Part shown: positions 1 through 44,739 of the stretch, piece after piece
Layout of the letters: every line of letters starts with the position of its first letter
How positions within the stretch are numbered: the stretch's first letter is position 1
From: a virus
Taxonomy: Duplodnaviria > Caudoviricetes
Direction: 5' to 3' (one strand)
DNA: 45,813 nt
Virus record (IMG/VR): IMGVR_UViG_3300012921_000078
Coordinates: 1 to 45,813 of that record
Position numbers and translations under genes: made by a program
The notes under the pieces: model-generated
What the model saw: the letters and a program-made list of their open reading frames with translations, nothing else
The model's database searches: none
Told to the model about the DNA's origin: nothing

Positions 1-1425
1 TCACACCGCCAGTCCTTCCTGCTGTTTCCACTCCACGAGCCGGTCGATCACGTCGTCGGCGATCTCCGCATCCGAGCCGAGATAGTGCTCGATCACGGAA
101 TGCACGGTCGAGACCTTGTGGCCCGAGACGCGGGAAATCTGCAGCGCGGTCGAGCCCGAGCGCGCCATGCGCGTGATCGCGGTGTGCCGCAGCATGCGGT
201 CGGAAACCTCGCCGAGATCTTCGGCGAGTTCGGGTTGCGGCGCGATCAGCCAGTCTTCCGTGCGCATCGTCTTCATGAAGCCTGCGATGCGCGCCTTCGC
301 AACCGGACCCCAGTTGCGCAGGAACGCCTTGGTCGGCACGACCAGGCGCATGCCTTCGTCATTGCGCTTCTTGCCGTTCGTGTAGCCGCCTTCGGCCGGC
401 GGCAGCCAGAACGCGCCGAAGATCAGCGCATCGCGCACGGTGCGGAATTCATGGCTGTAGGTGTCCTGCACGTAGGCCTCACCGGTCGCCTCGTGCACGA
501 GCACCGTTTTCGGGCGCTCGTCGGGCTTCTGCCCGAATTTCAGCGCGAGTTCGGCGCGGCGCTTCGCGGCATCCACGAGCCGTGCATGCAGCTCGGGCGT
601 TTCCTTCACGCGAACCACGGCGCCGGTCTTCGATTGCCGGAAGATACGCCGCCCTTGCTCGTCGAAACCGCCATCCTCGTGCAGGAGCCGGTCGCCCTGG
701 CGCTGGCCGGTATCGACGCCGAGCATGATGCTGTCGCCGATCGAGGGCTTTTCGAGCAGGTCGGCCGCGCGGACGAGCAGCGGCAGGTGCGCGTCCTTAA
801 TCACGCGCACGTTCAGCTCGGGCTTCGGCAGGTCGAGCTCGCGGCAGGGGTTGCCGTCGAGCTCCCAGCCCGGCGCAAGCTTCGCCCAGCGATAGGCCGC
901 CGACAGCACCTTGATCACGCCGAGCGCCATCGAAAGCCCGCGCTCGCGCTCCATCTGCTCGAAGAACTGCTTCACGCGCACCGGCTTCAGCGTGCGTGCC
1001 GGCGCGAGCGAGATCAGTTCGGGTGCACGTTCCTCGCCGCGGGCGAGCGCCTTCACATCGACCGGCTTCCAGTAGATCGCCTGCGCCTTTTCGAGGTAAT
1101 CGTCCCGCGTTTCTTCCGAATAGCCGCCCTGTTCGCGCGGCCGGAGAAAATCAGGCGAGCGGAAGAAGTCGTCGAGCAGGTCGCGCACGCGCTCGCCCTT
1201 CGGCACCGGCGGCGCCTTCGGCTTCTTGCCGGCTTCGAGCGCGGCGTCGATCTCGTCGGCCTTTGCTTTCGCCCAGGCGATGGTCTCGCCGGCGTCGAAC
1301 CACGGGCCGGTCTTGCCGTGGCGGAGGTCCTCGCCCCTGTATCCGATGGCGCGCAGCGCAGGGCCGGGCACGAAGCGCGGCTTGCCTTCGCGCCATGCGA
1401 TGTAGCGGGCTTTCACGACAGCCAT
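1..1425 (-). CDS. int: Tyrosine recombinase / phage integrase
   Basis: Catalytic motifs TGQRQGD (R), QSKT (K), LRHTAITR, SGH, HYL (Y); likely start MAVVKARY at 1425 after a purine-rich RBS. Confidence 0.93.
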   Translation of the reverse strand: MAVVKARYIAWREGKPRFVPGPALRAIGYRGEDLRHGKTGPWFDAGETIAWAKAKADEIDAALEAGKKPKAPPVPKGERVRDLLDDFFRSPDFLRPREQGGYSEETRDDYLEKAQAIYWKPVDVKALARGEERAPELISLAPARTLKPVRVKQFFEQMERERGLSMALGVIKVLSAAYRWAKLAPGWELDGNPCRELDLPKPELNVRVIKDAHLPLLVRAADLLEKPSIGDSIMLGVDTGQRQGDRLLHEDGGFDEQGRRIFRQSKTGAVVRVKETPELHARLVDAAKRRAELALKFGQKPDERPKTVLVHEATGEAYVQDTYSHEFRTVRDALIFGAFWLPPAEGGYTNGKKRNDEGMRLVVPTKAFLRNWGPVAKARIAGFMKTMRTEDWLIAPQPELAEDLGEVSDRMLRHTAITRMARSGSTALQISRVSGHKVSTVHSVIEHYLGSDAEIADDVIDRLVEWKQQEGLAV

Positions 1426-1484
1426 GGGGTTTGCTCTCTCGTTTTCTCTGCGCGAACCGGGAAGGCCCGGCGCGCGCTGCTCTC

Positions 1485-1865
1485 TCAAAAGACGAAGAAG
1501 TAGATCGCTGCTCCGCCTGCCAGCCATAGTGCGCCGATCTCGGCGGCGAGGGCAATCAGCCGCCGCCAGCCTTGGGATGGAACAGGTTCCGCCGCGCGTT
1601 CGATGGCGTCGAGCGTGTCAGCGACGAGTGCCCGGTCGCGGGCTCGCTGCGCTTCAATTTCTGCTTTCGCTCCGTGCTTCGCATCCATGCGCTGGGTGCT
1701 GCCGCCTGCGGCTGCGATGCGGGCAAGCTGGACGGTTGCCGCGGCGCGCTTCTCGACCGTGCAGGCGAGGGCCGCGACTTTACGATGAAAGCGCGGCGCG
1801 CGCGGATTGTGCGCGGTGCGCGAAAGCTTCGCGAGCAGCGCGTCGAGCGCCGGATCGCCGGTCAT
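1485..1865 (-). CDS. Hypothetical early phage protein with C-terminal hydrophobic anchor
   Basis: 126 aa ORF, ATGA overlap with upstream gene, ends LWLAGGAAIYFFVF. Confidence 0.65.
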   Translation of the reverse strand: MTGDPALDALLAKLSRTAHNPRAPRFHRKVAALACTVEKRAAATVQLARIAAAGGSTQRMDAKHGAKAEIEAQRARDRALVADTLDAIERAAEPVPSQGWRRLIALAAEIGALWLAGGAAIYFFVF

Positions 1866-2233
1866 GACAGCTTGCCGCCGTTCGCGCCGATGATGGTGGC
1901 CTTCGCCTTCGAATAGTCGAGCGCGAAGCTGACCGTCATGTTCACGACCTGCTCGTGCATCGCGCCGAAAACGCGGCCCGCCATGTGGCCGGGATTGTCG
2001 GTGTGCTTCCCGACCAGTTCGACCGTTGCAAAGCCGAACAGCGAGCCGAGCGCTACCGCGAGATTGTTTGGCTGCGTGTTGAGCGCCATCTCGTCGGCGA
2101 CGGCGCGACGCAGCGCCGGCAGGATCGCAAGCTGCATGCGCGCATAGACGGCGCTTTCGCCGTGCCCCTGCGCCATGCGCTCGAGCGCGGCCTTCGCTTC
2201 CGGCGGAAACTCGTGCGGGTCCTTGGTGTTCAT
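1862..2233 (-). CDS. Hypothetical early phage protein (MNTKDPHEF...)
   Basis: 3' part of the 1862..3373 ORF; ATG at 2233 with AGGAA RBS, ATGA overlaps at both ends. Confidence 0.7.
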   Translation of the reverse strand: MNTKDPHEFPPEAKAALERMAQGHGESAVYARMQLAILPALRRAVADEMALNTQPNNLAVALGSLFGFATVELVGKHTDNPGHMAGRVFGAMHEQVVNMTVSFALDYSKAKATIIGANGGKLS

Positions 2234-2640
2234 GCGATTTCCTTTCTGCCGTACTCGGCTTCCAGCGCGCGGTCCCATGCGTCGTCGGTGTTGCGCGTCA
2301 CCGGCGCGAAATCGTTTGCCGCCTTCAGCTTCGGGCGCATCGGGTCGTTGCGGGCGAACCACGCTTCCATCGCGTTGCGCTCGAAGGTCGGGCTGCCGAT
2401 GCTCGCGATCGGCGCGGGCATGCCGTCGCGCTCGATCAGCGCTTCCCAGTTTTTTAGCGGGCGCGAACCGGGCAAGCCCGCCGCGCGCCGGGAACACCAC
2501 TTGCGCGCCTTGCCCAGGCGTCGCTCGATCTCGGCGAGCGTCACGGCATCTTGCCGCCCGTGATAGGGCAGCGAGAACTGGCGGCGGAGCTCGAGCGCTG
2601 TGGCGCGCGAAGGCGCCACAGCTTTTTGTGTCAGAGACAT
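2230..2640 (-). CDS. Excisionase/AlpA-like winged-HTH protein
   Basis: VTLAEIERRLG...W...GMPAPI...PTFERNAMEAWF pattern resembles Xis/AlpA; lies upstream of int in the same operon. Confidence 0.6.
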   Translation of the reverse strand: MSLTQKAVAPSRATALELRRQFSLPYHGRQDAVTLAEIERRLGKARKWCSRRAAGLPGSRPLKNWEALIERDGMPAPIASIGSPTFERNAMEAWFARNDPMRPKLKAANDFAPVTRNTDDAWDRALEAEYGRKEIA

Positions 2641-3389
2641 TCGCCGACGATCTCTCGTTTGAGTGCGCCGATCTTGTCGTCTTCGTGCTCGACCTCGCCG
2701 TGCATGGCGACGATCCACCAGCGCTCGCCTTCCCATTTGTTCGGGAGAAACGTCGCGTGCAGCGTGCCGGCAGCACAGCAGCGGAGCGGGCCCGGTGCGG
2801 TTTCGATCGTGCCCGGCTGCACTGGATCGTTCTTGCCGCCGTTGCACGCCCGGCCGTTCTTGTCCGAGCGCCAATAGGCGAGCGGCACTCCCGACCTCTG
2901 GAGTTCGGCGAAGCGCTGCTGCTGCGCGCGCGGCCACTTCGCGGCGAAGTGCTCCATGCATGCGAGCCAATATTTCTTGTCTTGCTCGCCGGAGCCGTCG
3001 CCGTAGCCGTCGCCGTAGCCGTCGCCGGAGCCGTCGCCGGAGCCGTCGCCGTAGCCGTCGCCGTAGCCGTCGCCGGAGCCGTCGCCGTAGCCGTCGCCGT
3101 AGCCGTCGCCGGAGCCGTCGCCGTAGCCGTCGCCGTAGCCGTCGCCGGAGCCGGAGCCGTCGCCGTAGCCGTAGCCGTCGCCGGAGCCGTAGCCGTCGCC
3201 GTAGCCGTCGCCGTAGCCGTCGCCGGAGCCGTAGCCGGAGCCGTAGCCGGAGCCGTAGCCGTCGCCGTAGCCGTAGCCGGAGCCGTAGCCGGAGCCGTAG
3301 CCGTCGCCGGAGCCGTAGCCGGAGCCGTAGCCGTCGCCGGAGCGAAATGCGTCCGGGGCTGTGCCCCGGACAAGTTTTATTTGGCTCAC
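2631..3389 (-). CDS. Gly-[Tyr/Asp/Ser] repeat protein with C-terminal globular (DUF7666-like) domain
   Basis: GTG start overlapping the stop of the upstream gene (GTGA); 59 X-G dipeptides, then C..GTLH...W...V...GEV..EDDKI....EIVGE. Confidence 0.8.
   Translation of the reverse strand: MSQIKLVRGTAPDAFRSGDGYGSGYGSGDGYGSGYGSGYGYGDGYGSGYGSGYGSGDGYGDGYGDGYGSGDGYGYGDGSGSGDGYGDGYGDGSGDGYGDGYGDGSGDGYGDGYGDGSGDGSGDGYGDGYGDGSGEQDKKYWLACMEHFAAKWPRAQQQRFAELQRSGVPLAYWRSDKNGRACNGGKNDPVQPGTIETAPGPLRCCAAGTLHATFLPNKWEGERWWIVAMHGEVEHEDDKIGALKREIVGECL
2988..3341. repeat. Hexamer tandem array (GCCGTA/GCCGTC/GCCGGA), 59 units, with a 36-bp higher-order repeat
   Basis: Directly visible; on the minus strand only GGC plus TAC/GAC/TCC codons are used. 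Confidence 0.98.
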
Positions 3390-3688
3390 TTCCACGGCGC
3401 GGCTTCCCAGTTCTTCACCGCTTCCAGCGTGCATTCGGCCACGCAGGTGATGTCGCGCAGTTCGATGTCGGCGGCAGGACCGACGCGCGACCCGCTCATC
3501 GGTCCCATGCTGGCAAGCCCGATGAAGCCCTTGTTCTCGCGCGGCCAGTAGATGCAGTTTCTCGCTGCACGCAGCTTGATCGTTTCGCCATCGGTCTTCG
3601 TGGCATAGCCGAAGAAGACGCCGCGATGCGTGGTGGTGACGAGCACGGCGCGCTCGCCTTTCGTGCTGCGGTTAGGGTGATTAGCCAT
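3386..3688 (-). CDS. DUF6948-like small beta-rich phage protein
   Basis: VLVTTTHRGVFFG...I.LRAARNCIYW...GL...G...SRVGP pattern; good RBS; coupled to the Gly-repeat gene. Confidence 0.8.
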   Translation of the reverse strand: MANHPNRSTKGERAVLVTTTHRGVFFGYATKTDGETIKLRAARNCIYWPRENKGFIGLASMGPMSGSRVGPAADIELRDITCVAECTLEAVKNWEAAPWK

Positions 3689-3742
3689 TTCGTTTCTCTT
3701 CTCTCGCCCCTGAAAAGCCCCGAGGCGCGGGCACGCCTTGGC

Positions 3743-4042
3743 TTACAAAAGCTTCTTGCGCGGGAGTTCCTCGCGCGCGGAAAGGATGGACTGGATCAGC
3801 ACGAGGCCGGAGCGCGACAGCGCGAACAGCGGCCCGCGGCTGCCTTCCTCCGGCACCTGCTGGTGCCAGACTTCCACGAGCCAGCGCCGCCAGAGCGGAA
3901 TGGCAAAGCCGCGAAACTTGTTCGGTAGCGTGATCGCAGCACCCGCATGCACTGCATTCGCGCGGTGCAGGATTTTCAGGACCGCGATCTGTGGCCGCTT
4001 CAGGCGTTCGCGCATCGATGGCCTCGCGTGGCTGCTGCTCAT
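3743..4042 (-). CDS. Hypothetical protein, possible winged helix
   Basis: 99 aa, ATGA overlap, F.LSRSG wing-like motif. Confidence 0.6.
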   Translation of the reverse strand: MSSSHARPSMRERLKRPQIAVLKILHRANAVHAGAAITLPNKFRGFAIPLWRRWLVEVWHQQVPEEGSRGPLFALSRSGLVLIQSILSAREELPRKKLL

Positions 4043-4152
4043 CGCGCGGCCTCGTAGAGTTCGCGGACATGATCGGCCAGGGCGGCAAGCGTCAGCACCG
4101 CCATGAAGAACAGGAAGGCCAGCAGGAAGTCGCGCGTGGTGGGCTCACGCAT
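4039..4152 (-). CDS. 37-aa single-TM peptide MREPTTRDFLLAFLFFMAVLTLAALADHVRELYEAAR (absent from ORF track)
   Basis: Translated by hand; fills the gap between neighbours, overlapping both. Confidence 0.7.
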   Translation of the reverse strand: MREPTTRDFLLAFLFFMAVLTLAALADHVRELYEAAR

Positions 4153-4540
4153 CGTTCGCACCGAGCGGCTGGATGGAAGGGGTGAGCAGGCGCGGCACCA
4201 GCGTGCGGTGCGCTTCGACGCGGCGCATGCTCGCTGCCGCCGCCTCGTGCTTGCGCTTCACCGTGCGGGCATACCAGCCGCCTTTCGGGGTCAGCTTCGC
4301 CGCCTGCCAGCGCTTGCCGCCGCGCATCGCGGAGACAAGGTAGAGGCTGCCGCGCTTCTCGAGCGCGTCCACGGTCGCGCGCTTCACGTCGATCACGATC
4401 TGGTCGCTCTCGGGCCGCCAGCAGTTCGCGCCCGCGTGCAGGTACAGCGGGCCGTCGAGCAGCAAAAGCAGCGCGAGCTGCTGGCTCTCGGTGTGCCCGT
4501 TCAATGGAGCCATCGGCTCGGCTGTCAGATTGGTGGTCAC
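4145..4540 (-). CDS. First gene of leftward early operon, winged-helix-like hypothetical
   Basis: GTG start after GGGGGA; TVDALEKRG...KLTPKG motif. Confidence 0.65.
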   Translation of the reverse strand: MTTNLTAEPMAPLNGHTESQQLALLLLLDGPLYLHAGANCWRPESDQIVIDVKRATVDALEKRGSLYLVSAMRGGKRWQAAKLTPKGGWYARTVKRKHEAAAASMRRVEAHRTLVPRLLTPSIQPLGANDA

Positions 4541-4618
4541 GCCGCATCCCCCGGTTTTGTCTGGCGCGAACCGGCAGGCGGCACGCGCGAAGCAAATCAG
4601 TGGCGAGAGCATACAGAG

Positions 4619-4638
4619 GAATTGCAATGATGCAACAT
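4619..4638. promoter_or_regulatory. Putative left operator GAATTGCAATGATGCAACAT
   Basis: 18/20 identical to 5786-5805; AT-rich region upstream of the leftward operon. Confidence 0.7.
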
Positions 4639-4670
4639 AGAGTAGCTTGATTGCAATTTATCGAGTGGAA

Positions 4671-4686
4671 TGTTTCACGTGAAATG
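4671..4686. promoter_or_regulatory. parS-like palindrome TGTTTCACGTGAAATG
   Basis: 14/16 match to the parS consensus TGTTTCACGTGAAACA. Confidence 0.5.
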
Positions 4687-4752
4687 CAACGGCATCAAAG
4701 GGTTGCTCACGGATTTCCGGGCTGCGATGCTTTTCTGCATCGGAGGGAACTC

Positions 4753-4989
4753 ATGGAACTTTTGCGGCTGCTCGGCGATGCGGGGTTGACGGTCTTCCTG
4801 TTGGCGGGACTTCACCGCGTCTTCATGACGCCAGCCCGCATGTCAGCTGTCTGGCAGGGCGGCGACCTGCGCGATCACTACAGCGTGGTGTTCGCAATCG
4901 GGATAACTTCCGCTTTCGTTGTGGCCGTGCTCGCACTCTCGCGGGCGCTGACGGGCGCGCCGCGATGGCTAGGCTACTTCGGACTGTAA
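4753..4989 (+). CDS. Small two-TM membrane protein in the immunity region (moron / possible superinfection exclusion)
   Basis: GGAGGG RBS, 78 aa, two hydrophobic stretches, convergent with cI. Confidence 0.65.
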   Translation: MELLRLLGDAGLTVFLLAGLHRVFMTPARMSAVWQGGDLRDHYSVVFAIGITSAFVVAVLALSRALTGAPRWLGYFGL

Positions 4990-5024
4990 GATCGAATTGA
5001 GCCCGCCAGCGGCCACGGCTGCGG

Positions 5025-5681
5025 TCAGGCGACCGCCTTCACATTGCGGATCAGGTTCGTCACCACGCCCATGACCACGACCCGCTCGGGATCCAGCATC
5101 ATCGGCTTGCGGAACGCCGGGTCATAGGAGAGGGCGACCAGAGACGGCGGCTCGTAGAACCGGAAGGCTGTCTCCTTGGCTTCGCCCGAGTGGTCGTAAA
5201 CCTGCGCGCATACGATGTCGCCGGGCTGCGGATGGCGGCCATGGTCGACCAGCACCACGTCGCCGGGAAAGTAGCCCGCCGCTTCGAGCGAGCGGCTCCT
5301 TAGCGTCCAGGCCTCCGCGTTGTTGCGTCCGGCCTTCAACGCCTTCAGCGCAATCTCGATGGCGATGCCTTCGGGGTGATCGGCGGCATCGAACTTAACG
5401 CCGTCGTCGCGAAATCCCCGGACAAAGCGCTTCGAAGGCGCAGAGGCCACGGCTGGCGGCGCGATGCCGGTCGCGCGGGCGACCTTCTCGATCGTGGTCG
5501 GATGCAGCGCGTGCGGGTTGTCGGCGTCTTCTTCGAGGAAGCGCGTGAGCGTGGAGGTCGCGACGCCAGCCATGGCGGCGAGCGGCGTCGGCTTGATCCC
5601 GGTTTCCGTGATTACGCTGCGGAGCCATTCCCGCTGCATCTGTCCGGTCAGCGGCGGGGACGGCTTCTTCGACTTCGCCAC
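5025..5681 (-). CDS. cI: CI-like repressor (HTH + S24/LexA-like C-terminal domain); start uncertain (GTG 5681 or ATG 5639)
   Basis: HTH PTPLAAMAGVATSTLTRFL; C-terminal SRSLE..GY.PGDVVLVD....PGDIVCA...VMGVV; divergent from cro-like gene. Confidence 0.85.
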   Translation of the reverse strand: MAKSKKPSPPLTGQMQREWLRSVITETGIKPTPLAAMAGVATSTLTRFLEEDADNPHALHPTTIEKVARATGIAPPAVASAPSKRFVRGFRDDGVKFDAADHPEGIAIEIALKALKAGRNNAEAWTLRSRSLEAAGYFPGDVVLVDHGRHPQPGDIVCAQVYDHSGEAKETAFRFYEPPSLVALSYDPAFRKPMMLDPERVVVMGVVTNLIRNVKAVA

Positions 5682-5785
5682 GTGCAACCCCTGCGGTGCA
5701 ACAACGCTACCGCTTGTATGCAGTTGCGCTTTACCCCCTTCAACTTGCGAGATTGCACTTGACATTGTTGCTCGGGTCAGTCGGT

Positions 5786-5805
5786 GAATTGCAACTATGC
5801 AACAT
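5786..5805. promoter_or_regulatory. Putative right operator GAATTGCAACTATGCAACAT overlapping the cro start; TTGACA -35 at 5759-5764
   Basis: Near-identical to 4619-4638; further TGCAA half sites at about 5683, 5697 and 5753. Confidence 0.7.
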
Positions 5806-6108
5806 GCCGACCATAAAAGCCAATACAAGCTTCGCTGCCAGATGGTGGGCCTTACCATCCGCAGCTTCGCGCGCGAGGCGGGGGTTGATCCCTCGACCGT
5901 GCATCGTTTTCAGGAAGCCGGCGGGCTCCGCTCCACCGAGCGGAAGCTTGAGGGGGTACTAGTACGGCGCGAGCAGCAGGTACTCCGGCACCTGCTCGCA
6001 CTCCACGGCCGCTCCGATCTCTACGACCAGATCATCCCGGCATCTTCTGCCGATGCGACGCGGACTACGCTCGACGCTGCACCGGGCGGCGACGCGGAGG
6101 CCGCATGA
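5797..6108 (+). CDS. cro: Cro-like HTH regulator
   Basis: GLTIRSFAREAGVDPSTVHRF HTH; divergent from cI. Confidence 0.8.
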   Translation: MQHADHKSQYKLRCQMVGLTIRSFAREAGVDPSTVHRFQEAGGLRSTERKLEGVLVRREQQVLRHLLALHGRSDLYDQIIPASSADATRTTLDAAPGGDAEAA

Positions 6109-9630: not shown

Positions 9631-10142
9631 AAGCCGCTGAACTTCGCGAACATCACAAGGCGATCCTGTCTGCGCCGCCGTTCGATGTGCAGGATGCCAT
9701 CGCGATCGCGCTGCATGCCGGTGACTTCGCCGCAAAAGCTGCGGGCCGGGCCGCCGCCGACCTCTTCGCGAACAACTACAATCTGCAGGCGCTGGTGCAG
9801 CACGCGAAGCGCGACCGCGACCTGAAGCCGGACGTTGCCTTCAAGGTGGCGGGCGGCTCGATCGCGTTCGAGCATGTGAGCAAGGACATCCGCTTCGGGT
9901 TCATCGCCTTCTGCGAAACCTTCAAGGCGCTGCGCATCTATGCCGAGCGCGAGGAAGCGCACTACGCGCGGGTCTCGATGGAGATCGCACAAGCCGAAGC
10001 GCGCGAGGCGAAGGCGAAGCAGTCGCCCTTCTTCAAACAGTTCACCGCGCTGCGCGACAAGCTGCGCGATCGACGCAAGGCGAGAGAGCAGAAGGCGAAA
10101 CGACCGAAAGCAAAAGGAGGAACGAAAGATGGCAAGCGTTAA
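9627..10142 (+). CDS. Hypothetical phage protein
   Basis: AGGAGG RBS, ATG 9627, basic C-terminus. Confidence 0.7.
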   Translation: MKAAELREHHKAILSAPPFDVQDAIAIALHAGDFAAKAAGRAAADLFANNYNLQALVQHAKRDRDLKPDVAFKVAGGSIAFEHVSKDIRFGFIAFCETFKALRIYAEREEAHYARVSMEIAQAEAREAKAKQSPFFKQFTALRDKLRDRRKAREQKAKRPKAKGGTKDGKR

Positions 10143-10362
10143 TTCCGCCGGCAACGACCGCACCGTGAACAACACGATGCGCCACCAGTACCGGGTGCTC
10201 ACCGACAAAGAGAAGGCAGACATGCTCGCGATCAAGGATCACGGGCTTGCGATGCACCAGCTGCTCGAGCAGATCGCGCCCGATGGCTCGCGCGAAATGT
10301 CGATCGCGAAAACCAAGATCGAAGAAGCAGTGATGTGGGCGGTTAAGCACATCACGGCCTAA
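10129..10362 (+). CDS. Acb2/Tad1-like cyclic-nucleotide sponge (anti-defence) candidate
   Basis: AGGAGG RBS; YRVLTDKEKADM..IK..G...SREMSIAKTKIEEAVMWAVKHIT resembles the Acb2/Tad1 helical hairpin. Confidence 0.75.
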   Translation: MASVNSAGNDRTVNNTMRHQYRVLTDKEKADMLAIKDHGLAMHQLLEQIAPDGSREMSIAKTKIEEAVMWAVKHITA

Positions 10363-35952: not shown

Positions 35953-36064
35953 ACTAAATGGGAAATGCCGAGAGCTATAAGTGTGCGAGCCAACTAGTTA
36001 GAAAACTACAGAAAGCTAATAAGTTGGCGCTTACTCGATAGGAAAGAGCCGAAAGCTATCAAGT
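35953..36064. repeat. Three 13-6-13 dyad repeats at 40-bp period
   Basis: ACTNGWTAGGAAA-N6-AAAGCTAWCAAGT-like units at 35953 (degenerate), 35993, 36033. Confidence 0.85.
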
Positions 36065-36697
36065 TATTTTTTCTACTTTCGAGATCGCCACTTTTCGGCA
36101 AACTAGCTCAAATTCATTTCTGCGAAGAAACGTTGCGAAAATATCGACTCGCTGAACGATGCCTGAGGCGAGAATGCAGGGACGACTTTCGCGGGTTCGA
36201 CGATTAGCAAAAAATAGCGCCTTCTCTCGATCAGTTGTCCATGAGAGCGAGGTAGGCTGAATGGGACGGTCGGAACCGCGCCAGACTGTAGCGGGCATCG
36301 CCAACTCGTTCAGGAAAAGCTTTTCTTCTGCATTCATTGCATCCGTAAGGTCAGGTTCTTCAGAGGTCCAAATACCAAGCCAATCTGCGTGGTTCTGAAA
36401 AATATTCTCCGAGTCGCACCAAACGTCGCCCACCAGTTTCCAAAAGGACGATCCTCTCAAACCGGCGGAGTGGCACCGCTTAAGGATTTTCAGTCTGTAC
36501 GAGCGCGCGTGAAGAAAAACGTATCTTTCCCAGTCTTTTACGTGTCGAGCGGCATCAGCCTCTCTTTTTATTGAAAGATACTCAGAGTTGACGACATCAA
36601 ATTGGGAAGGAACGAGCGGTCGGACCAGAAGAGGGTGATGTACGAGACCTTCCTCTGAATCATAGTAGTCTTCGAGATCGGGATGAAGCGACGCCAT
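36059..36697 (-). CDS. ADP-ribosyltransferase-like protein (R-S-E type)
   Basis: VWRG, LSWTTD and NEFELV motifs in canonical order in the C-terminal ~80 aa. Confidence 0.68.
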   Translation of the reverse strand: MASLHPDLEDYYDSEEGLVHHPLLVRPLVPSQFDVVNSEYLSIKREADAARHVKDWERYVFLHARSYRLKILKRCHSAGLRGSSFWKLVGDVWCDSENIFQNHADWLGIWTSEEPDLTDAMNAEEKLFLNELAMPATVWRGSDRPIQPTSLSWTTDREKALFFANRRTRESRPCILASGIVQRVDIFATFLRRNEFELVCRKVAISKVEKIT

Positions 36698-36737
36698 TGC
36701 GTTATCTAGGGTTCTCGAGAAGGCACATACTGAAACT

Positions 36738-36807
36738 ACTGGATAGGAAATAGCAAAAAGCTATCAAGTTGGAGCTCTTGTTAGGAAAGACAACAAAGCT
36801 AACAAGT
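36738..36807. repeat. Two further 13-6-13 dyad repeats
   Basis: ACTGGATAGGAAA-TAGCAA-AAAGCTATCAAGT (36738) and TCTTGTTAGGAAA-GACAAC-AAAGCTAACAAGT (36776). Confidence 0.88.
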
Positions 36808-36840
36808 GCCGTTGTGCTCATTGAGAAGTATATGAGGTGA

Positions 36841-37746
36841 CTAGTGTTGTGAGCGCCAGGTCACTATCGGAAACCTGAACCTTTTCCAACAGAGTTTGGC
36901 TAGCTCAATCGACGTGGCAGTCTTTAGTTCAAATAGTGTTTCAAGGTCCGAGGAGTATGCAGCCCCGAAAATTGAATTTGAACGCAAATGTCCTTTATCC
37001 TCAGTGCACAAGAAATCGTAGCCGTATGAATGATGCGCACAAGCCATGTCAAAATCTGCCCAATCCGCTAGGCGATGGCGAACTATCGCTTGAAAAGCCT
37101 CGACAGACGGGTGTCGGAGAGGATTGTTTTCTTCCGCCGCTATTCCTTCTCTCCATAACAAGCGATCAATCGAGACCTTGTTTAGGGCCGCAGACTGCCG
37201 CATGCCTTGGTTCATGGCTGCAAGTCCATGGGCGATCGAAAGACTTTCGCCGAGGTCCTTTAGTTTGTTGAGTGGGAAATCTTGAAAGTGTCGAAGAAAT
37301 TTACTGAACCTCCGTTGTCGCTCTGCAATATCGAAAACGTCATCAATAGCCCATTGATTGGCTTGAATACCAACGATCTCTCCATAGACAATACGTGCGC
37401 CATGCAAAGCCTTGAAACCGAGCGCGAATGCTTTTTGAATTAGCTGACGTCGTCCCTCAGGGATTACGGGAGGTGTGGCAGCTTTCGAGGTGCCAAGCGT
37501 TAAAAGAAAGCTGATTCGACTCACGTTTGGGAGAACTTCAGCTGCAAAGGCTGCCTCAGAGATAGCGGCCTTTATCCGTCCGCGCCGTATGCACCATTGA
37601 ATATAGCACCAGGCGACTCTACGCTTCTTAGACAGAATGCGGTCGCGATTAATTGGCCACCAGCCACGGGAAAATAGTCTTGCAGGTTTTGGGCTGGCAA
37701 TTGAGCTATACGTATTGGTATCAAATGAAACGCGGATCGCACTCAT
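36841..37746 (-). CDS. PIN-like domain protein (putative RNase)
   Basis: VSFDTNT at N-terminus; ADFDMACAH...DFLCTEDK at C-terminus. Confidence 0.62.
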   Translation of the reverse strand: MSAIRVSFDTNTYSSIASPKPARLFSRGWWPINRDRILSKKRRVAWCYIQWCIRRGRIKAAISEAAFAAEVLPNVSRISFLLTLGTSKAATPPVIPEGRRQLIQKAFALGFKALHGARIVYGEIVGIQANQWAIDDVFDIAERQRRFSKFLRHFQDFPLNKLKDLGESLSIAHGLAAMNQGMRQSAALNKVSIDRLLWREGIAAEENNPLRHPSVEAFQAIVRHRLADWADFDMACAHHSYGYDFLCTEDKGHLRSNSIFGAAYSSDLETLFELKTATSIELAKLCWKRFRFPIVTWRSQH

Positions 37747-37785
37747 ATCTGACGAATAGTCCTTCGAAATAATTGGTGGGTTAAA

Positions 37786-38136
37786 ATGATTTCAAGGCTC
37801 GCAGTCTTCATATTATCAAGCAGTATTGCAGCATGCGCTTCGCCTTCCCAAGAGCAGTTGGTTAGTAGTGATTACAAGGTCCTGATTGCAACAGTTATGG
37901 GCCACACGAAAGATCAACGGGGGCCCCGTAAGATTTCGATCGCACAGCCATGGTCAGCACTTACAGGCGCCATTCTCGTTTGCGTAATTGATCACACGCC
38001 CGATGGACGAGGCGGGTTTAACGATAAAGGGCAGTACTCGCTCTTCACAATCAACGACGGGAGAATTACTCACCGTGGAACAGCCCGTGACGAAACTGCC
38101 CCTTGCGATCTGCCACGGCAATCAGCGGCGGCATAG
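37786..38136 (+). CDS. Small lipoprotein
   Basis: Lipobox-like SSSIAAC; 116 aa. Confidence 0.55.
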   Translation: MISRLAVFILSSSIAACASPSQEQLVSSDYKVLIATVMGHTKDQRGPRKISIAQPWSALTGAILVCVIDHTPDGRGGFNDKGQYSLFTINDGRITHRGTARDETAPCDLPRQSAAA

Positions 38137-40142
38137 CTGCGTTTGCCGTCGAAGAAGGAGTCGAGCAACTGGTCAGCATTGAAGCTATTCGTGGAGGGTG
38201 CGGGGCCTGCGGTCCCATTCGGCTGCAGGCCTGCTGCTTCCAATGTCAGGCAATATGCGACGTTCAGGTCGAAAATGGCACTGCGCTTGGCAGCCGGTGG
38301 CGTGAACGGCGAGAATAGCGGCGACGCAACGAGCCGGGCAGATAGAGGCAGTGTGCTCTCGATCTCTTCCGGCGACAGCGGACTACGAAGCGGAATGCTG
38401 CTTCGTATAAGATCGGGATCGACTTTCACCGGGCCCGAGGGGCCGACGTCTGGAACGGGCGGAAGCCGGAAGGAAATTCCCCCCATCGCGCTGATCGCCA
38501 CCGCCGCGGCTCCGGCCGCGGGTGGAATGGGCGACCACGCGATATACATCGTGCCGGGTACGCTCTGCGGAACACTCCACGTCTGCCGCAAAGCAACAGG
38601 CAAAGCGAAGTTTGGCGCGCGCGCTTTGAGCCATTGCGCGGCATAGGCGAGTTTCGCGACTTCCCGGACCTCGTGCAGCGCTGGGAATTCTTCCGAAAGT
38701 GAATTGTACAGTCGAGTGAGCAATTCCTCGTAGCCACCTGGTCTAGGAGGCAAGTCCCGGCCGTCTTTGCCTTTCTCACGAATGTTGAAACGCATTGCGA
38801 CATCGTCCAACGCCAGGACGCTGCCGTCCGGGGATTGGCGAGCGTTTACGCGATCCACGGAAATCCATAGGTGATAGGTGGCCGTCGCGCTGGACAATCT
38901 GCCTGTGTTTGGATGACTTCGCTGAAACGCAAACTCGGCCTGATAGCCTTTAATGCGGTTCGTCAGTTCCGGCATGTTGATTAGCCGCTTTGCCAGAAAG
39001 TCAGCTTCAAACATGACTTTCCCCAATAACGTGCGGCCATCGACATTGTAATATTTGGGTTCGGCCATCACGGTGCCGCGAAGCGATGGGCTCACGAGTT
39101 CGAGCGGCACATGGACTTCGCCCTTCGGCCTGAGCTTTTCGAAGGCTTTGCTGAGAACGCCAAACATCTGCCGGTCCATTTCGCCAAAGCAGAGCGTCAA
39201 AGCGTTCTCGGGATTTCGGTCACGCTGAAGCGAAGCTTCAAAAACTCGACTAACCGGCATGCTCGCAAGCGAAAAGGTGTCGTCAAGCGAGCGGCAGATT
39301 TCCCGATTCAGTTGCGTATAGGCTTGCTCGCGGGTGATGCGCCTTGCGACCATCTGGTCGCGCAAACGATAAGCCAGTTCGATCGTGTTCGTTGCAAAAT
39401 AAATGCTTTCGATCGCCTCCTGACGGGATTGCCCCGGTGTCGATCGCGCGAGCATTCCCATGGCATCGACGAGCTGATGGCCGCGAAAGTCGTCTGCTGC
39501 GAGCAATATCTTCGCGATGATCTGATACCGATCCATCGCATCCCAGTTGTATTTGCAGGCACCAGGTCCGCTAAATTCCACTTCCATTAAATCTGCAAGG
39601 CGGTTAGCGGCCGTTCCACCCTGCTTTCGAAGCGCCTCGATTTTCTTGCAGATGTGGCTCTCGTCGAATTGCGGCTTCACACCAAAGATTGGAAGGAAGT
39701 AGCGACCTGCCGGAGTGATCTTTCCGCGTTCATCGAGCCAGCGGCCCCACTCGGAGACAATCTTCTTCATCTCCGCATCAGAATCCATCCGTCGGAACAG
39801 TTCCGCGACGCGCCTTTCCGACTCGGCGACCCACTCCAACGAAAACTCGGGCGCAGGATATTGCAGGAGCGTCGCGAGATGTTGGTAATAGGGGATCGCT
39901 ATCGCGGGGTAAGTCGGATCGAAGTGACCCATGAGTATCAGGCGGCCCTTCGCGGCGTCGTACTCGATCCGGTCGAGCACATTGAAAGCAATCTGCTGCT
40001 CGGCAGCAGTCAGGCGCTGAACGTCTGGCTGCCGTTTGTTGAGGTCAGATTGTGCGTCGACCGGAGCAGCCGCAAACGACAAGTATCCAACTATGGACGC
40101 AACGAGCGTAACGCCCGTAATTCTGCGGTAGCCGTTTCGCAT
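38070..40142 (-). CDS. Large secreted protein, DUF1598-like motif
   Basis: Signal peptide; TLLGKVMFEADFLAKRL; 690 aa. Confidence 0.7.
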   Translation of the reverse strand: MRNGYRRITGVTLVASIVGYLSFAAAPVDAQSDLNKRQPDVQRLTAAEQQIAFNVLDRIEYDAAKGRLILMGHFDPTYPAIAIPYYQHLATLLQYPAPEFSLEWVAESERRVAELFRRMDSDAEMKKIVSEWGRWLDERGKITPAGRYFLPIFGVKPQFDESHICKKIEALRKQGGTAANRLADLMEVEFSGPGACKYNWDAMDRYQIIAKILLAADDFRGHQLVDAMGMLARSTPGQSRQEAIESIYFATNTIELAYRLRDQMVARRITREQAYTQLNREICRSLDDTFSLASMPVSRVFEASLQRDRNPENALTLCFGEMDRQMFGVLSKAFEKLRPKGEVHVPLELVSPSLRGTVMAEPKYYNVDGRTLLGKVMFEADFLAKRLINMPELTNRIKGYQAEFAFQRSHPNTGRLSSATATYHLWISVDRVNARQSPDGSVLALDDVAMRFNIREKGKDGRDLPPRPGGYEELLTRLYNSLSEEFPALHEVREVAKLAYAAQWLKARAPNFALPVALRQTWSVPQSVPGTMYIAWSPIPPAAGAAAVAISAMGGISFRLPPVPDVGPSGPVKVDPDLIRSSIPLRSPLSPEEIESTLPLSARLVASPLFSPFTPPAAKRSAIFDLNVAYCLTLEAAGLQPNGTAGPAPSTNSFNADQLLDSFFDGKRSYAAADCRGRSQGAVSSRAVPR

Positions 40143-40882
40143 GTGTCTAAGTTATTCGACACTCTCGGAACCTCATTGACCCAAGTCAAAGCCATCCGAT
40201 GTAACAGATTCTTCTAACAATGAGCACCCGCTGGAAGTGTGAATGGCGGTTCTGGCGGCCGCATTCCGACAAGGTGAAATCTAGCCTTATCTACCAATGC
40301 TGCGGGAAGGACAGTTTTGGCGGAATGGCTATTGAAGTCGTTGGCTTTTCAAACAACGTCTAAGCTGTTGGTCGCAGGTTTGTTTCCTATCTGGGTCACC
40401 AATATTTGGAATGACTTAGCGCTGTAACCCACTCGGACAAGCTACTCGAGCAGGCCTGATGGCCGCCTCTGTCTAACTAGCTTTCTCTACAAAGGCGAAA
40501 ATCGCAGCTCTGGACGAATGGCGTCACTGTAGGGTTGTATTCTGTGCTCGATAGCGTGTTTATTTGGGTGATCGTAAGCATTTGCTCAAGGCAATAGATG
40601 GTGTTGAGACAGTGTGAACGTGCAAAGAGCCTTTAATGGAGGTGTTCAGCGCTGTTGGTACCGGCATCAATGTTCAACTATCGTCTTCGGCGCAGCGCGA
40701 GCGATACGTAATTGGGTAGAATTGAACATGACTACGCGGGGGTGCGACGTTGCCGCAGAGTATTCAGACTGAATTGCGTTTGCTTCTTCACAGAGAAATT
40801 ATCGGCGTGAGCAAATGCGAGCTAGTCAAATTTGAACTGCCGTAGCGATCGCTTCCCGTGACGAGCGCAGGGGAGTAAGACT

Positions 40883-42499
40883 TTGAGTCTTATAGTTTCG
40901 CCAGCTGCTTACACCGCATCCGTCGATGCGCTTGAAAGCCGTTTGCGGCGCATTTATCCACTCATGCTTTTCCTTAAGGTCATGATGTTGTTTGTGGTTG
41001 CGGTGGTCCCGTTCTGGATCGTTGGCGCCAACTTGCTTCCACAGTCTGCGCTACTGGACTACGGCGGTATGCGTGGCACAGAACAAGCGCCTGCAGAAGT
41101 GCCAATCGCAGATAAGATCGCGTGGAGCGGAGATCCTGCAGCATATATCGGCCTGGCTATTGCCGTAGTAATCATCGCAAGTGTCATTTGGCTAGTGTGC
41201 TTCTTCGCGAGCAAACTGATCGCTAATCTGAGCCGAGCCATCGGAGTGTTTGGGCTGGTGATCGCCGCGTACTGGCTCGTCACAATCGCCGAGAACTATC
41301 CAGAGACAGAAATTTACCTGCTTCAAGCGATGGAAGATGTTCCCGCGACTGTGATGATCATCATATTTTCCATGATGACGCTCGCATTTCTCTATGCCCT
41401 TCACGTCCAGTGGACACTGGTGCTGGGGGCACTCAATATATTCCGGATGAGTGAAGAGGAGCGTGCCGTTTTTAAAGAACAGGCTTTGCTGCTTGGAAGG
41501 GCGCAACAGATACTCTTTCGCCTGCTGGCCCTTCCCGTTCTGGCTCCCTTTGCAGGCCGCTCTCGCATGCGGTTCATTGCTATTATTCTCCTGGCGGTTG
41601 TCTCCAACATCATTTTTTTCTGGGCAGCGCTCGGACTCGGGTCGTCACCGCGGGACCTAGCGTTCCTAGTCGGAAACGTCTCCGTTAGTTGCTCCGTACT
41701 GGGGCGCGCGGACTGGGTCGATGCGATCCCTTTACTGGCATCCATTCCTGCCCTGGCATGTTTCGCTGGCCAGATCAGCCACTTGCCGCGTTTGTTACAG
41801 TTGGCGGCGCAAACTCAAGTCATCGCAATTCTCGCACTGCCGCTAGCGTGGCTGGCGCAGCGCCTAGTTCGTCGCCTCGTTCGATTTTCGCTTGCGCGTT
41901 TGCAGGAGGTCGACCGCAGGCCACCAGTTCTGTTTCTTCGTGCCTTTGCCGACGATCAAGTCGGGCTCCCGAGAGGCCGGCTCGCGCTGGTCGCTCGCAT
42001 TCTCGAACTAGGCCGGGGCCGTCCGACACTCGATCAAATGCTGCTGGAAGAGGGCACGCCATATGGTCCTGTCGTTGCGCTCGGAAATCCTGCCGATAGG
42101 AATCCGCCCTACGGCGCGGCGCGGGGCTATTTCGAAGACAAGAACTGGCAGGAGGCCGTAGCCGATCTTGCCGCAAACTCGAAATTCGTTGTGATCTGTC
42201 TCGACCAAACCGAAGGAATATTCTGGGAGATCGAGCATCTCATCGGCAACCGGCATCTCGACAAGACGCTTTTTCTGGTTCATCCGAAGTTCGCATCGCG
42301 TGATGCCAATCGAAATTATCTAGCCGGACTGAGCGAACTAAAAATTCCCGTCCATGAACTTGACCCGGTAATCGGCTTTTTCTTCAAAAAGGACGGCGCG
42401 ATCCGCGTTATGCAATCTGGAACGTTCTCGCGCTTCGCCTATATGATTGCGATACGCACTTTCATTCAGCATATGGGATCAGAGCCCACCAAGCCGTGA
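40883..42499 (+). CDS. Polytopic membrane protein with C-terminal TIR/Rossmann-like domain
   Basis: Several TM segments, then PVLFLRAFADD...GPVVALG.P...GAAR.Y....WQ..V...T.G..WEI. Confidence 0.75.
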   Translation: MSLIVSPAAYTASVDALESRLRRIYPLMLFLKVMMLFVVAVVPFWIVGANLLPQSALLDYGGMRGTEQAPAEVPIADKIAWSGDPAAYIGLAIAVVIIASVIWLVCFFASKLIANLSRAIGVFGLVIAAYWLVTIAENYPETEIYLLQAMEDVPATVMIIIFSMMTLAFLYALHVQWTLVLGALNIFRMSEEERAVFKEQALLLGRAQQILFRLLALPVLAPFAGRSRMRFIAIILLAVVSNIIFFWAALGLGSSPRDLAFLVGNVSVSCSVLGRADWVDAIPLLASIPALACFAGQISHLPRLLQLAAQTQVIAILALPLAWLAQRLVRRLVRFSLARLQEVDRRPPVLFLRAFADDQVGLPRGRLALVARILELGRGRPTLDQMLLEEGTPYGPVVALGNPADRNPPYGAARGYFEDKNWQEAVADLAANSKFVVICLDQTEGIFWEIEHLIGNRHLDKTLFLVHPKFASRDANRNYLAGLSELKIPVHELDPVIGFFFKKDGAIRVMQSGTFSRFAYMIAIRTFIQHMGSEPTKP

Positions 42500-42672
42500 T
42501 TTTTACGGCGGGCGTGTGCCGGACTGCAGGGCTGAAGAAGGGCGCACCGTAATGCTTGTCCAGAAACCCGCAGTAGTTAGTAGTATTTAACGACTCTAGG
42601 AGCGGAATTTACAATTAAGGGAAGCATGTATTGTGCCGCTCTGGTTACGTTACCAAACGCAACATTGTTGTT

Positions 42673-43146
42673 TCAACCTTTCTCGTTCTGACCTGCGATG
42701 CCTTTAGCTGCCGGTGCCTGTTGTTGGCGCGACATCCAGTTTACGTTCTCCGTGGCAATGATGTTTTCGGTTTGAAGAATGAGAGTCTTTTTTGCTTCTT
42801 CGGGTGACAATCCATCATACGCACCAACCCCGCCGACATACGAGAACTTCTCGCGCCGCAAGTTTTCGCAAACTGCACGGTAGTTGATCCATTTGTCGTG
42901 CCACCCATTGACCTGTTGTAGTCCCTCCAGAATTACGACGCCTACGCCGATAGCCGCAGTTACGGTCCCGTCGGCCAGAATTGCAGCCAGAGGCACCGTG
43001 GCGCTCATGCTCATGGAAAGAAGCTTTGTCCTTTGCGCCCAGCCTTGTGCGGCGCGAGCTTTGCGATCGTACCAATCGAGTTGCTGTTCCAGCCGGGCGT
43101 ATCCGCTATCCGGTTCAGTGTATTTGGTTTCCGATTTTCCGGTCAT
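42673..43146 (-). CDS. DUF4231 / SLATT-family two-TM protein
   Basis: RLEQQLDWYDRKA...two hydrophobic helices...WINYR..CE.LRREK..Y. Confidence 0.85.
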   Translation of the reverse strand: MTGKSETKYTEPDSGYARLEQQLDWYDRKARAAQGWAQRTKLLSMSMSATVPLAAILADGTVTAAIGVGVVILEGLQQVNGWHDKWINYRAVCENLRREKFSYVGGVGAYDGLSPEEAKKTLILQTENIIATENVNWMSRQQQAPAAKGIAGQNEKG

Positions 43147-43279
43147 GAAAGCTGCCTTGAGAAGCGGGTTGAATTGTCGAAGCTAACCAGACGGGCACAA
43201 CTTTGCACTAGTAGGATGTTACCTCACTACTATATTCTCAATCGGAGCGTTTCTCGCGACGCTCCGCTGGGGAAGGTTC

Positions 43280-44365
43280 ATGAGCTTGATTGCGGTGCGA
43301 AAAGGGTTGCTGTTGCTGGCGGCACTCACTGGCTGTTCACTTCTTTTCATAGGCTCGTCCAAAGCTGCCAAGATCGAGTACGTGAGGCGAACCTATTGTA
43401 ATGTTCTTCTCAGCGGACCCATCGAGAAGGGCGATTTGCGCAGGCTCCAGAGCGCGCTCGAGAATATCCCGGAGCGATTCTCGCGGGTGCCTGTGGCCGG
43501 CGATGGCATTTTCGCTAACATCTGCCTGAACAGCCGCGGTGGAGATCTAGCCGAAGCACTGGCCATTGTCCGCTTCCTTGCGGAGACAATCCGCTACGGT
43601 ACGGTGGTCGATGAGGGACATGAGTGCCTGGATGCCTGCGCATTCATTTTCATGGCCGGCAGCTATTTTTACGATCATGGTAATGTAAAACCGTCGCGGC
43701 TCCTTCATGTCCGCGGGAAACTTGGTTTTCAAGTGCCGACGAACAATACTGGCGCTGGCACGTACGACCACGTTGCCGTTCAGCACGCCTATACAAATGC
43801 TTCCGCTGCAATTTCAGGGCTAATCGAGATCGATTCCTCACGAAAGATGGGATCAGATCGCGACCGTGTAATGCCCCGATCGCTTATGCTAGAAATACTC
43901 GGCCGGGAACCTGAAGAACCGCTGATCCTGGAAACCATTGAGCAGGCCTTGAGGTGGAACATTGCTCTCATCAGCGACACCCAGCTAAAAGCAATTACGC
44001 AGCGTATGACGCTTCGTGCTTGCGCCAACGACTTGCTTGAAAGGTATTCCATAAGAATAACCAGTGATAGCACGACCGATCAGCCCATCGAACTTTTGAA
44101 CAACCGGGCTACGCGCGTTTTTAAAAATCTCGGTCCTCGCAAAGACTACGACTGCACCGTACAGGTCATTCGCGACGCCAATAGCAGATATTTCGTCAAC
44201 GTGAACATCAACCAGCGCGGCATAAAGCGTTATGTAGTGCCTTTCAAGGTATTCCTTCGGGAAACGAAGAGGCCGGTGAGCGAAACGACCCGAGTGGGCA
44301 ATGGCGTCTGCGCGCCGATCTGGTCGCTGCTGCCCTCCGAAACTAAATTGGAAGCTCTACAGTGA
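43280..44365 (+). CDS. Exported ClpP/crotonase-fold (COG3904-like) protein, copy 1
   Basis: Signal peptide; LSGPIEKGD, LNSRGG, C.DAC.FIFMAG, LGF. Confidence 0.8.
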   Translation: MSLIAVRKGLLLLAALTGCSLLFIGSSKAAKIEYVRRTYCNVLLSGPIEKGDLRRLQSALENIPERFSRVPVAGDGIFANICLNSRGGDLAEALAIVRFLAETIRYGTVVDEGHECLDACAFIFMAGSYFYDHGNVKPSRLLHVRGKLGFQVPTNNTGAGTYDHVAVQHAYTNASAAISGLIEIDSSRKMGSDRDRVMPRSLMLEILGREPEEPLILETIEQALRWNIALISDTQLKAITQRMTLRACANDLLERYSIRITSDSTTDQPIELLNNRATRVFKNLGPRKDYDCTVQVIRDANSRYFVNVNINQRGIKRYVVPFKVFLRETKRPVSETTRVGNGVCAPIWSLLPSETKLEALQ

Positions 44366-44389
44366 CTGTATTGAACAAACGATTCGACC

Positions 44390-44617
44390 TCACGCTGGCA
44401 GCGCTCGGCATATTAGGCTGTGCCTCGGTTCTGGATGCGCCGGTATCCAATTTTTTAAACGTCGCTCGTTCGCACTCATGCTCATGGAAAGACGCTTTAT
44501 CCTTTGCGCCCAGCCTTGAGCAGCGCGCGCCTTGCGATCGTACCAACCGAGATGCTGTTCGAGCCGGGAGTATCCACTATCCGGGTCCGTGTACTTGGCT
44601 TGCGATTTTGAATTCAT
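44390..44617 (-). pseudogene. Truncated duplicate of the DUF4231/SLATT gene
   Basis: First ~48 codons highly similar to 42673..43146 (YT.PDSGY.RLEQ.L.WYDRKARAAQGWAQR.K.LSMSMSA), then similarity ends before the TM region. Confidence 0.85.
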
Positions 44618-44739
44618 GAAGGCTGCTTTAAGAAGCTGGTTGGGCAGAAAAAGCGGTGCACACTAACAGGCTGTTTGAGTTTGATATATTCCCCAGCTGC
44701 GGCATTCTTGCTACGTTGCACCGGGACAGGTTACAAAAA

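Follow-up and report, generated by a model that had tools for sequence, protein, structure and literature searches.

A conserved phage gene pair linking DUF6948 to a Gly-X repeat protein with a predicted ART-fold domain

The phage genes rIIA and rIIB counter lambda RexAB (PMC11879866 and PMC13716836), and the anti-Rex specificity of RIIB is called unclear after nearly seven decades (PMC11879866). RIIB is treated as a transcription factor in PMC7824862, in a passage that describes no ART fold. A literature search for DUF6948, for DUF7666, for the peptide NHPNR in phages and for an ART fold in RIIB returned nothing; the supplements of PMC7824862 or subscription reviews on ART proteins may already note the fold. 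Here, a pair of prophage genes is described that encode a DUF6948 protein (ORF A) and a Gly-X repeat protein with a folded C-terminal domain, or CTD (ORF B). The pair is real, conserved, and undescribed in the literature searched; it is built from known folds, and we infer its function. The original prediction for this locus did not mention an ART-like fold, an Sm-like fold or an RNA leader.

The window, that is, the whole 45.8-kb stretch of DNA that was analyzed, is a provirus record with integrase, S24-type repressor, primase, terminase, head, tail, and lysis genes. The cassette lies in a leftward run of small genes between the repressor and the integrase, and this run is read as early genes. 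Clues to the host come from relatives alone, with alphaproteobacterial names on 9 of the 13 genome loci that carry the CTD. The flanks of the cassette differ among relatives, the commonest neighbor family occurring at 16 of 73 loci. An unnamed family, to which a 99-aa ORF upstream of the cassette (positions 3743 to 4042, minus strand; no Pfam, PHROG, or NCBIfam match) apparently belongs, flanks it on the upstream or downstream side in 16 of 73 loci, the window among them. No sigma-70 promoter match was found within positions 1400 to 6100, and the region holds 4 terminator-like sites versus 4.6 expected. Two strong terminator-like hairpins, at 3351 to 3371 and 2597 to 2622 (both plus strand), are antisense to the cassette, within a regional count equal to chance. 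PHROGs and PADLOC gave no match for the cassette proteins, nor did tblastn searches of 50,697 GenBank phages with the CTD, DUF6948, or a pentapeptide-type relative as the query. Among sequencing runs, the best share was 0.15, probably from repeat words, and four RNA runs compared over positions 3350 to 4000 yielded only short pieces less than 90% alike and no expression evidence.

Several other features of this prophage were recorded. A gene at approximately 10126 to 10362 (plus strand) encodes an Acb2/Tad1 hairpin domain (PF24729; E value, 6e-18) and is likely an anti-defense nucleotide sponge. A 28-nt direct repeat with 89% identity occurs at 1450 to 1477 and 2461 to 2488, with a partial copy near 4563 to 4574; one copy lies just before the likely integrase start, and the repeats are possible integrase or excisionase binding sites. 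Similar TTGCA-rich 20-mers at 4619 to 4638 and 5786 to 5805 bracket the repressor region and are likely operators. The stretch from 36000 to 45813 has a GC content of 47 to 59%, versus about 66%, and large ORFs with no PADLOC or NCBIfam match, and can be read as cargo or host flank.

ORF A (positions 3386 to 3688, minus strand; 100 aa) matches Pfam DUF6948 (PF22253) with an E value of 3.7e-23 and 81.9 bits, above the gathering cutoff of 27, and thus belongs to the family to which it had originally been assigned. Its structure model (pLDDT, 89.9) consists of a low-confidence N-terminal peptide, MANHPNRS, and a predicted Sm/LSm-like barrel: the best fold match is an LSm1-7 chain (Z score, 7.5; rmsd, 2.5; 64 residues aligned), and the top 19 rows are all Sm/LSm-type chains or complexes containing them. 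What ORF A has in common with Sm, LSm, and Hfq proteins is the fold, on the predicted model, whereas extra helices at residues 54 to 61 and 88 to 96 are its own. Compared with Pfam DUF6948 at large, the subtype is set apart by its NHPNR N terminus and by a partner whose C-terminal domain is folded. The median dN/dS of DUF6948 is 0.10 (from the 171 usable of 197 close pairs, which are not independent).

The linkage of the two genes was surveyed in three sets of loci that overlap, partly including the same phages, and that are weighted to close relatives. The first protein search gave 53 CTD homologs, every one of which, on inspection by eye, has a Gly-X stretch before the domain. Among 93 CTD loci, the record ends upstream with the frame open in 23; DUF6948 is adjacent in 66 of the remaining 70 and lies beyond an insertion in 1. 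Three had no scored DUF6948, namely, one with a DUF6948-like gene of another type, judged by eye (L138), one with almost no upstream DNA (L122), and one without the gene (L113); the phage represented by L113 and L365 keeps the CTD without DUF6948. Starting from DUF6948, the best 80 of 106 loci include 52 with an adjacent Gly-X-plus-CTD gene, 17 that end in the repeat, 4 with a Gly-X protein lacking the CTD, 3 with the CTD further on, and 4 others. In metagenomes, 79 loci (after the window's own contig, L324, was dropped) comprise 36 adjacent pairs, 40 broken off upstream, and 3 without DUF6948, which amounts to 36 of 39 informative loci. These surveys bear out the predicted linkage of the genes across phages. 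At three loci (L020, L048, and L074), HNH-like ORFs, identified by eye, lie between DUF6948 and the Gly-X partner. The assembly breaks just upstream of the CTD (23 of the 93 CTD loci and 40 of the 79 metagenome loci) fall mostly inside the repeat, so that the full ORF B gene is underrepresented in databases.

The two proteins are linked as genes, but their divergence is poorly correlated. The distance correlation between DUF6948 and the CTD is weak (rho = 0.13 on partly saturated distances, versus 0.49 to 0.53 between odd and even columns within each protein and 0.25 to 0.60 between halves; a tree version built with FastTree gave 0.26), which argues against a tight, coevolving interface between them and suggests recombination within the repeat.

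ORF B ends at position 2631 and is likely 254 aa long. Possible starts were compared in 73 unique complete DUF6948/ORF B pairs (115 before duplicate removal). The codon over the last DUF6948 Trp codon shares the partner's frame in 70 of the 73 and is ATG in 34, whereas the codon at -4 (GTGA type) is ATG, GTG, or TTG in only 22. Furthermore, the Pro codon preceding the former start is CCA in 33 of 71 cases, compared with 40 of the 288 Pro codons elsewhere. Given a conserved in-frame start at that Trp codon, translation of ORF B most likely begins at GTG 3395, 10 nt inside ORF A, and not at the GTGA at 3389, as judged by sequence comparison. The original prediction of translational coupling through GTGA is therefore right about the overlap, and coupling is supported, but the start itself has to be moved. 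From this start runs an 18-aa leader peptide (3342 to 3395, minus strand) with the family motif hydrophobic-R-G-x-x-P, conserved beyond the gene overlap.

The leader is followed by the repeat (2988 to 3341, minus strand; 118 aa), which, as first counted, consists of exactly 59 alternating X-Gly units, X being Tyr in 22, Asp in 21, and Ser in 16, with no basic residue. It is the strongest of three TRF rows in the window (score of 478 versus 60 and 54) and ranges from 16 to 158 aa in relatives. The Gly-X frame, which the prediction took to be translated, is, on comparative grounds, the coding one, since it joins the conserved leader to a CTD under purifying selection (median dN/dS, 0.12, from 33 usable of 34 close pairs, again not independent) and since noncanonical X codons in repeats keep Tyr, Asp, or Ser in 148 cases versus 80 that do not. 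Other frames of the repeat were rejected, having no conserved leader and no CTD, and Pfam TrAA12 and NCBIfam serine-rich matches on ORF B were set aside as low-complexity artifacts of the repeat.

Two explanations turn on the nature of this chain. It might self-assemble into a condensate or a silk-like polymer, with DUF6948 as a chaperone, as was initially envisaged. In keeping with this idea, Tyr makes up about 40% of the non-Gly residues in the repeat regions of 73 relatives, and Ala (GCC) is depleted, with 18 occurrences versus 203 expected from codon neighbors; however, the GCC deficit could stem from avoidance of the palindromes GGCGCC and GCCGGC or from a history of slippage. Repeats as short as 16 to 24 residues are attached to CTDs about 90% alike to those of long-repeat relatives; for example, two phages with CTDs 90% alike have repeat regions of 24 and 122 aa. 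Given that relatives manage with as few as 16 repeat residues, a tether fits better than a polymer, and the period of 2 makes the chain unlike polyglycine-II bundles, in which the pattern has a period of 3. Self-assembly is thus considered improbable. Alternatively, the two genes might share expression signals alone, their proteins never touching and the repeat being a slippage-prone spacer. This would suit the low DUF6948-CTD correlation, the use of only four codons in the window's repeat (GGC, TAC, GAC, and TCC), and the GGC share of Gly codons, which is 91% in repeats versus 57% outside; it sits poorly with the strict Gly alternation and the Tyr/Ser/Asp alphabet kept through synonymous change, with the conservation of the leader peptide beyond the overlap, and with the near-obligate linkage, and so has only a slim chance of being correct.

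Small H-type pseudoknot leaders are known from the T4 gene 32 operator and preQ1-I. Upstream of ORF A and beyond the coordinates of the original prediction, before the DUF6948 ribosome site, lies an RNA motif of approximately 27 nt (3706 to 3732, minus strand) that resembles these leaders in size, topology, and place beside the ribosome site but differs in sequence, and Rfam gave no match over it. Stem 1 pairs 3732 to 3729 with 3720 to 3717, and the loop GCCUC (3726 to 3722) is complementary to GGGGC (3710 to 3706), after which comes the purine-rich ribosome site. The three core pairs of stem 1 are 100% paired in 59 aligned copies, with 8, 25, and 20 double changes and also G-U pairs, and the covariation score is 0.394, compared with 0.110 for shuffled alignments and at most 0.072 for slid ones. 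The predicted stem 2, which is part of the search pattern, is 99.7% paired and nearly invariant; G027 and G548 show a double change from G-C to A-U, and L065 has one A-C mismatch. RNAalifold picked the invariant loop-tail helix rather than stem 1; together, the two helices make an H-type pseudoknot, which is the likely structure of the motif. The minimum free energy fold of the window's leader is a longer hairpin containing stem 1, a possible alternative structure. An HDV-like ribozyme was considered by eye and rejected, the P1, P2, and P4 partners being absent.

A viral scan for the motif, with stem 1 left unspecified, returned 104 loci (L220 to L323), 94 of them unique. A stem of at least 3 bp is present in 70 of the 94, versus a mean of 19 and a maximum of 30 in 2,000 shuffles, and all 70 stem-bearing matches have an ATG or GTG 3 to 16 nt downstream. 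The genes that follow the 94 unique matches encode DUF6948 in 25 cases, other proteins starting with NHPNR in 17 (two of them DUF7666), and other or chance products in 52. The motif is mostly single copy, being present in 46 of 65 records, with two or three matches in four. The element is portable, sitting in front of numerous unrelated phage genes whose products often begin M-x-N-H-P-N-R; since, under a strict pattern, 43 of 104 DUF6948 loci lack it and so many unrelated genes have it, it is not specific to the cassette.

These observations bear on the idea that DUF6948 is an RNA-binding translational regulator acting on the leader pseudoknot, possibly via NHPNR, with the acidic Gly-X chain as a nucleic-acid-like competitor that strips DUF6948 off RNA and the CTD as cargo. 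The acidic tail of Hfq competes with RNA, and the Gly-X chain would be such a tail supplied in trans. The predicted Sm-like fold and the charges (14 basic versus 10 acidic residues in DUF6948, 21 Asp in the repeat) agree with this, as does the co-occurrence of the motif and NHPNR: under a strict pattern, the 104 DUF6948 loci have both in 54 cases, neither in 39, the motif alone in 7, and the peptide alone in 4. That co-occurrence may reflect shared ancestry. Yet no more than 25 of the 94 unique matches lead into DUF6948, and 17 unrelated proteins also start with NHPNR, so that the motif and peptide make up a portable unit for which no Sm domain is required; moreover, about 40% of DUF6948 loci have neither. 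Such a regulator is accordingly regarded as unlikely.

The CTD of ORF B (2631 to 2987, minus strand; 118 aa plus stop) contains the originally noted pattern CC..GTLH..W..DDK..EI, in a domain close to the length of about 115 aa first given. Conservation was assessed in 140 sequences, comprising the window's own and what was left of 150 representatives once partial matches had been taken out; residues are numbered in the 254-aa protein. W175, C207, H213, K241, R247, and E252 are conserved in 91 to 100%, with C207 in 96%, H213 in 100%, K241 in 96%, and R247 in 100%. Only the second Cys of the CC pair, C207, is kept, the first column being mostly Leu or Ile; the Cys/His character assigned to the domain thus does not extend to a metal cluster, and a metal site was rejected on the ground that there is a single conserved Cys.

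The structure model of the CTD is confident (pLDDT, 94.9; pTM, 0.89). Foldseek against the PDB gave nothing at E ≤ 0.001, but about 45 of the 50 matches listed in a VIA fold search are, by their titles, ART-superfamily chains, led by Arr (Z score, 6.5; rmsd, 3.6; 78 residues aligned), BC2332 (5.9), entry 9ld3 (4.9), and diphtheria toxin (4.3), with 2'-phosphotransferases at 3.2 and below. All of these scores are lower than the VIA caution level of 8; the ART core fold is predicted because the match list is consistent, though the Z scores are middling. The minimal ART folds Arr, BC2332, and Tpt1/KptA include the best solved-structure matches to the CTD and have no sequence similarity to it; Arr was detected by none of the sequence profiles compared. 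A LOV-domain identity, raised by a PDB sequence search (best E value, 0.033), is not supported by the best fold matches. ESM Atlas, which offers leads only, gave an unnamed best match at 0.88 and a DUF7666 cluster at 0.86.

ART active sites carry the triads H-Y-E or R-S-E, or His-Tyr-acid in the Arr type, and Arr and the tRNA 2'-phosphotransferases work without the canonical Glu. In the CTD, Trp, His, and Lys would occupy the H-Y-E positions, in a register taken from secondary structure, motif reading, and the ART layout, not from residue-level superposition. At these putative positions, the canonical H-Y-E or R-S-E residues are absent, and in place of the catalytic Glu there is no conserved acidic residue but a Lys in 96% of the 140 sequences. 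The CTD might still be an active enzyme that uses noncanonical, Cys-His-Lys-based ART chemistry to modify or cleave a host protein, the end of an RNA, or an NAD-derived signal. The near-invariance of C207, H213, K241, and R247, the recurrence of Cys-His-Lys in DUF7666 and RIIB (see below), and the presence of Arr and tRNA 2'-phosphotransferases among the close folds speak for activity; but the first NAD-binding position, as placed here, is not fixed (Trp in the CTD, Lys or His in relatives), and the core spans only about 85 aa, which leaves catalysis decidedly unlikely. A further proposal, that ORF B acts as a toxic effector of exclusion or host takeover, with DUF6948 as its antitoxin or chaperone, draws on the small upstream gene, the coupled start, the near-obligate linkage, and the fact that many ART folds are toxins. 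It is very unlikely in view of the 4 loci, among the best 80 of 106, where DUF6948 accompanies Gly-X proteins without a CTD, and of the CTD found without DUF6948, the weak covariation, and the missing catalytic Glu.

The relatives of the CTD point elsewhere. Against Pfam DUF7666 (PF24703), it scores 13.2 bits (E value, 0.13), under the cutoff of 27, and 7 of 46 members match at E ≤ 1 (best, 0.005). Profile-profile alignment with hhalign, using a DUF7666 profile of 5 DUF7666-search matches (4 above the Pfam cutoff), gave a probability of 96%, an E value of 4.6e-9, and a score of 48.9 versus a maximum of 16.9 in 40 shuffles. By profile and fold, the CTD is a remote DUF7666 homolog below the Pfam cutoff, and the resemblance first noted is confirmed to that extent. 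The two have in common the Cys-Gly-His...Lys pattern and fusion to repeats, and two distinct DUF7666 genes (L222 and L223) have the same RNA leader and NHPNR start as the cassette. The CTD differs from the DUF7666 head domain in its C-terminal position, in two additional helices at its N terminus, and in a Trp for the first Lys or His.

The kinship extends, with less certainty, to RIIB. A BFVD fold search with the CTD matched DUF7666 (E value, 1.7e-4), an RIIB (5.7e-4), and many more RIIB rows, the best rows being DUF7666, pentapeptide, RIIB, and giant-virus ankyrin proteins. The hhalign probability between DUF7666 and the RIIB C terminus is 83%, whereas, compared directly, the CTD and RIIB profiles match only marginally (score of 16.3 versus a shuffled maximum of 15.5) and the CTD profile does not match T4 RIIB alone. 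The Cys, His, and Lys align across the CTD, DUF7666, and RIIB groups, and the C-terminal ~110 aa of T4 RIIB share this pattern with the CTD. T4 RIIB has a helix-turn-helix (HTH) at residues 7 to 50, in the place of which ORF B has its leader and Gly-X repeat and nothing HTH-like. No RIIA gene was seen among the subset of window ORFs scanned or among recurrent neighbors.

A distant search of representatives with the CTD returned 294 matches, the best 150 of which were sorted by a rough classifier: a Gly-rich stretch comes before the domain in 56 and a long tail comes after it in 49 to 51; the domain stands alone or as a fragment in 34 and is otherwise placed in 11. Pfam searches of 100 of these 150 identified the long tails mostly as pentapeptide repeats. 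The repeat type attached to the CTD therefore looks exchangeable. Some Gly-X partners (L060 and L071; P0180, P0181, P0233, and P0241) bear an additional head that looks folded, either in place of the CTD or alongside it. A broader synthesis would make DUF7666, the T4 RIIB C terminus, the giant-virus ankyrin heads, and the CTD a single unrecognized viral branch of the ART fold with a Cys-His-Lys site, carried on interchangeable arms (Gly-X, pentapeptide, or HTH-bearing RIIB), neutralizing defenses, and often placed behind a portable pseudoknot-plus-NHPNR module; such a synthesis is speculative and, on present evidence, doubtful.

The reading that we prefer, tentatively, is that of a mobile early-phage cassette in which a noncatalytic, RIIB-like ART-fold binder on an acidic Gly-X tether, together with an Sm-like DUF6948 partner of the leader or repeat, counters a host or rival-prophage defense. 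It draws on sequence and comparison for the linkage, the coupled start, CTD selection, repeat-length variation, the DUF7666 homology, and the covariation of stem 1, and on prediction for the Sm fold, the ART fold, and the second stem. The leader RNA would set ORF A translation, and translational coupling would then match the amounts of ORF A and ORF B. DUF6948 would bind ORF B at the leader peptide or the repeat rather than at the CTD, for which the repeat would serve as a flexible acidic tether, and the Cys-His-Lys cleft of the CTD may bind an NAD-derived nucleotide, a nucleic acid, or a defense protein, without ADP-ribose transfer. The target would be a defense system of the host or of a rival prophage. 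This anti-defense role is proposed by analogy, because the CTD seems distantly related to RIIB, because rIIA and rIIB counter RexAB, and because the same prophage carries an Acb2/Tad1 hairpin gene. The preferred reading is weakened by the marginal CTD-RIIB score, the Z scores below 8, the empty Foldseek search, the failure of the profiles to detect Arr, the lack of an HTH and of any RIIA seen, the phage of L113 and L365, the rho of 0.13, the occurrence of the RNA motif outside the cassette, and the lack of a PADLOC match.

Two phage modules that are widespread but have gone unstudied come together in the cassette. Its leader RNA may represent a new family of cis-regulatory elements in phages, and the 118-aa stand-alone CTD, with its confident model, is convenient for structure determination and ligand screens. 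The comparison also points to the same three residues, Cys, His, and Lys, in T4 RIIB; if the single-branch synthesis is true, the mechanism of rII counter-defense would be directly testable at those three residues.
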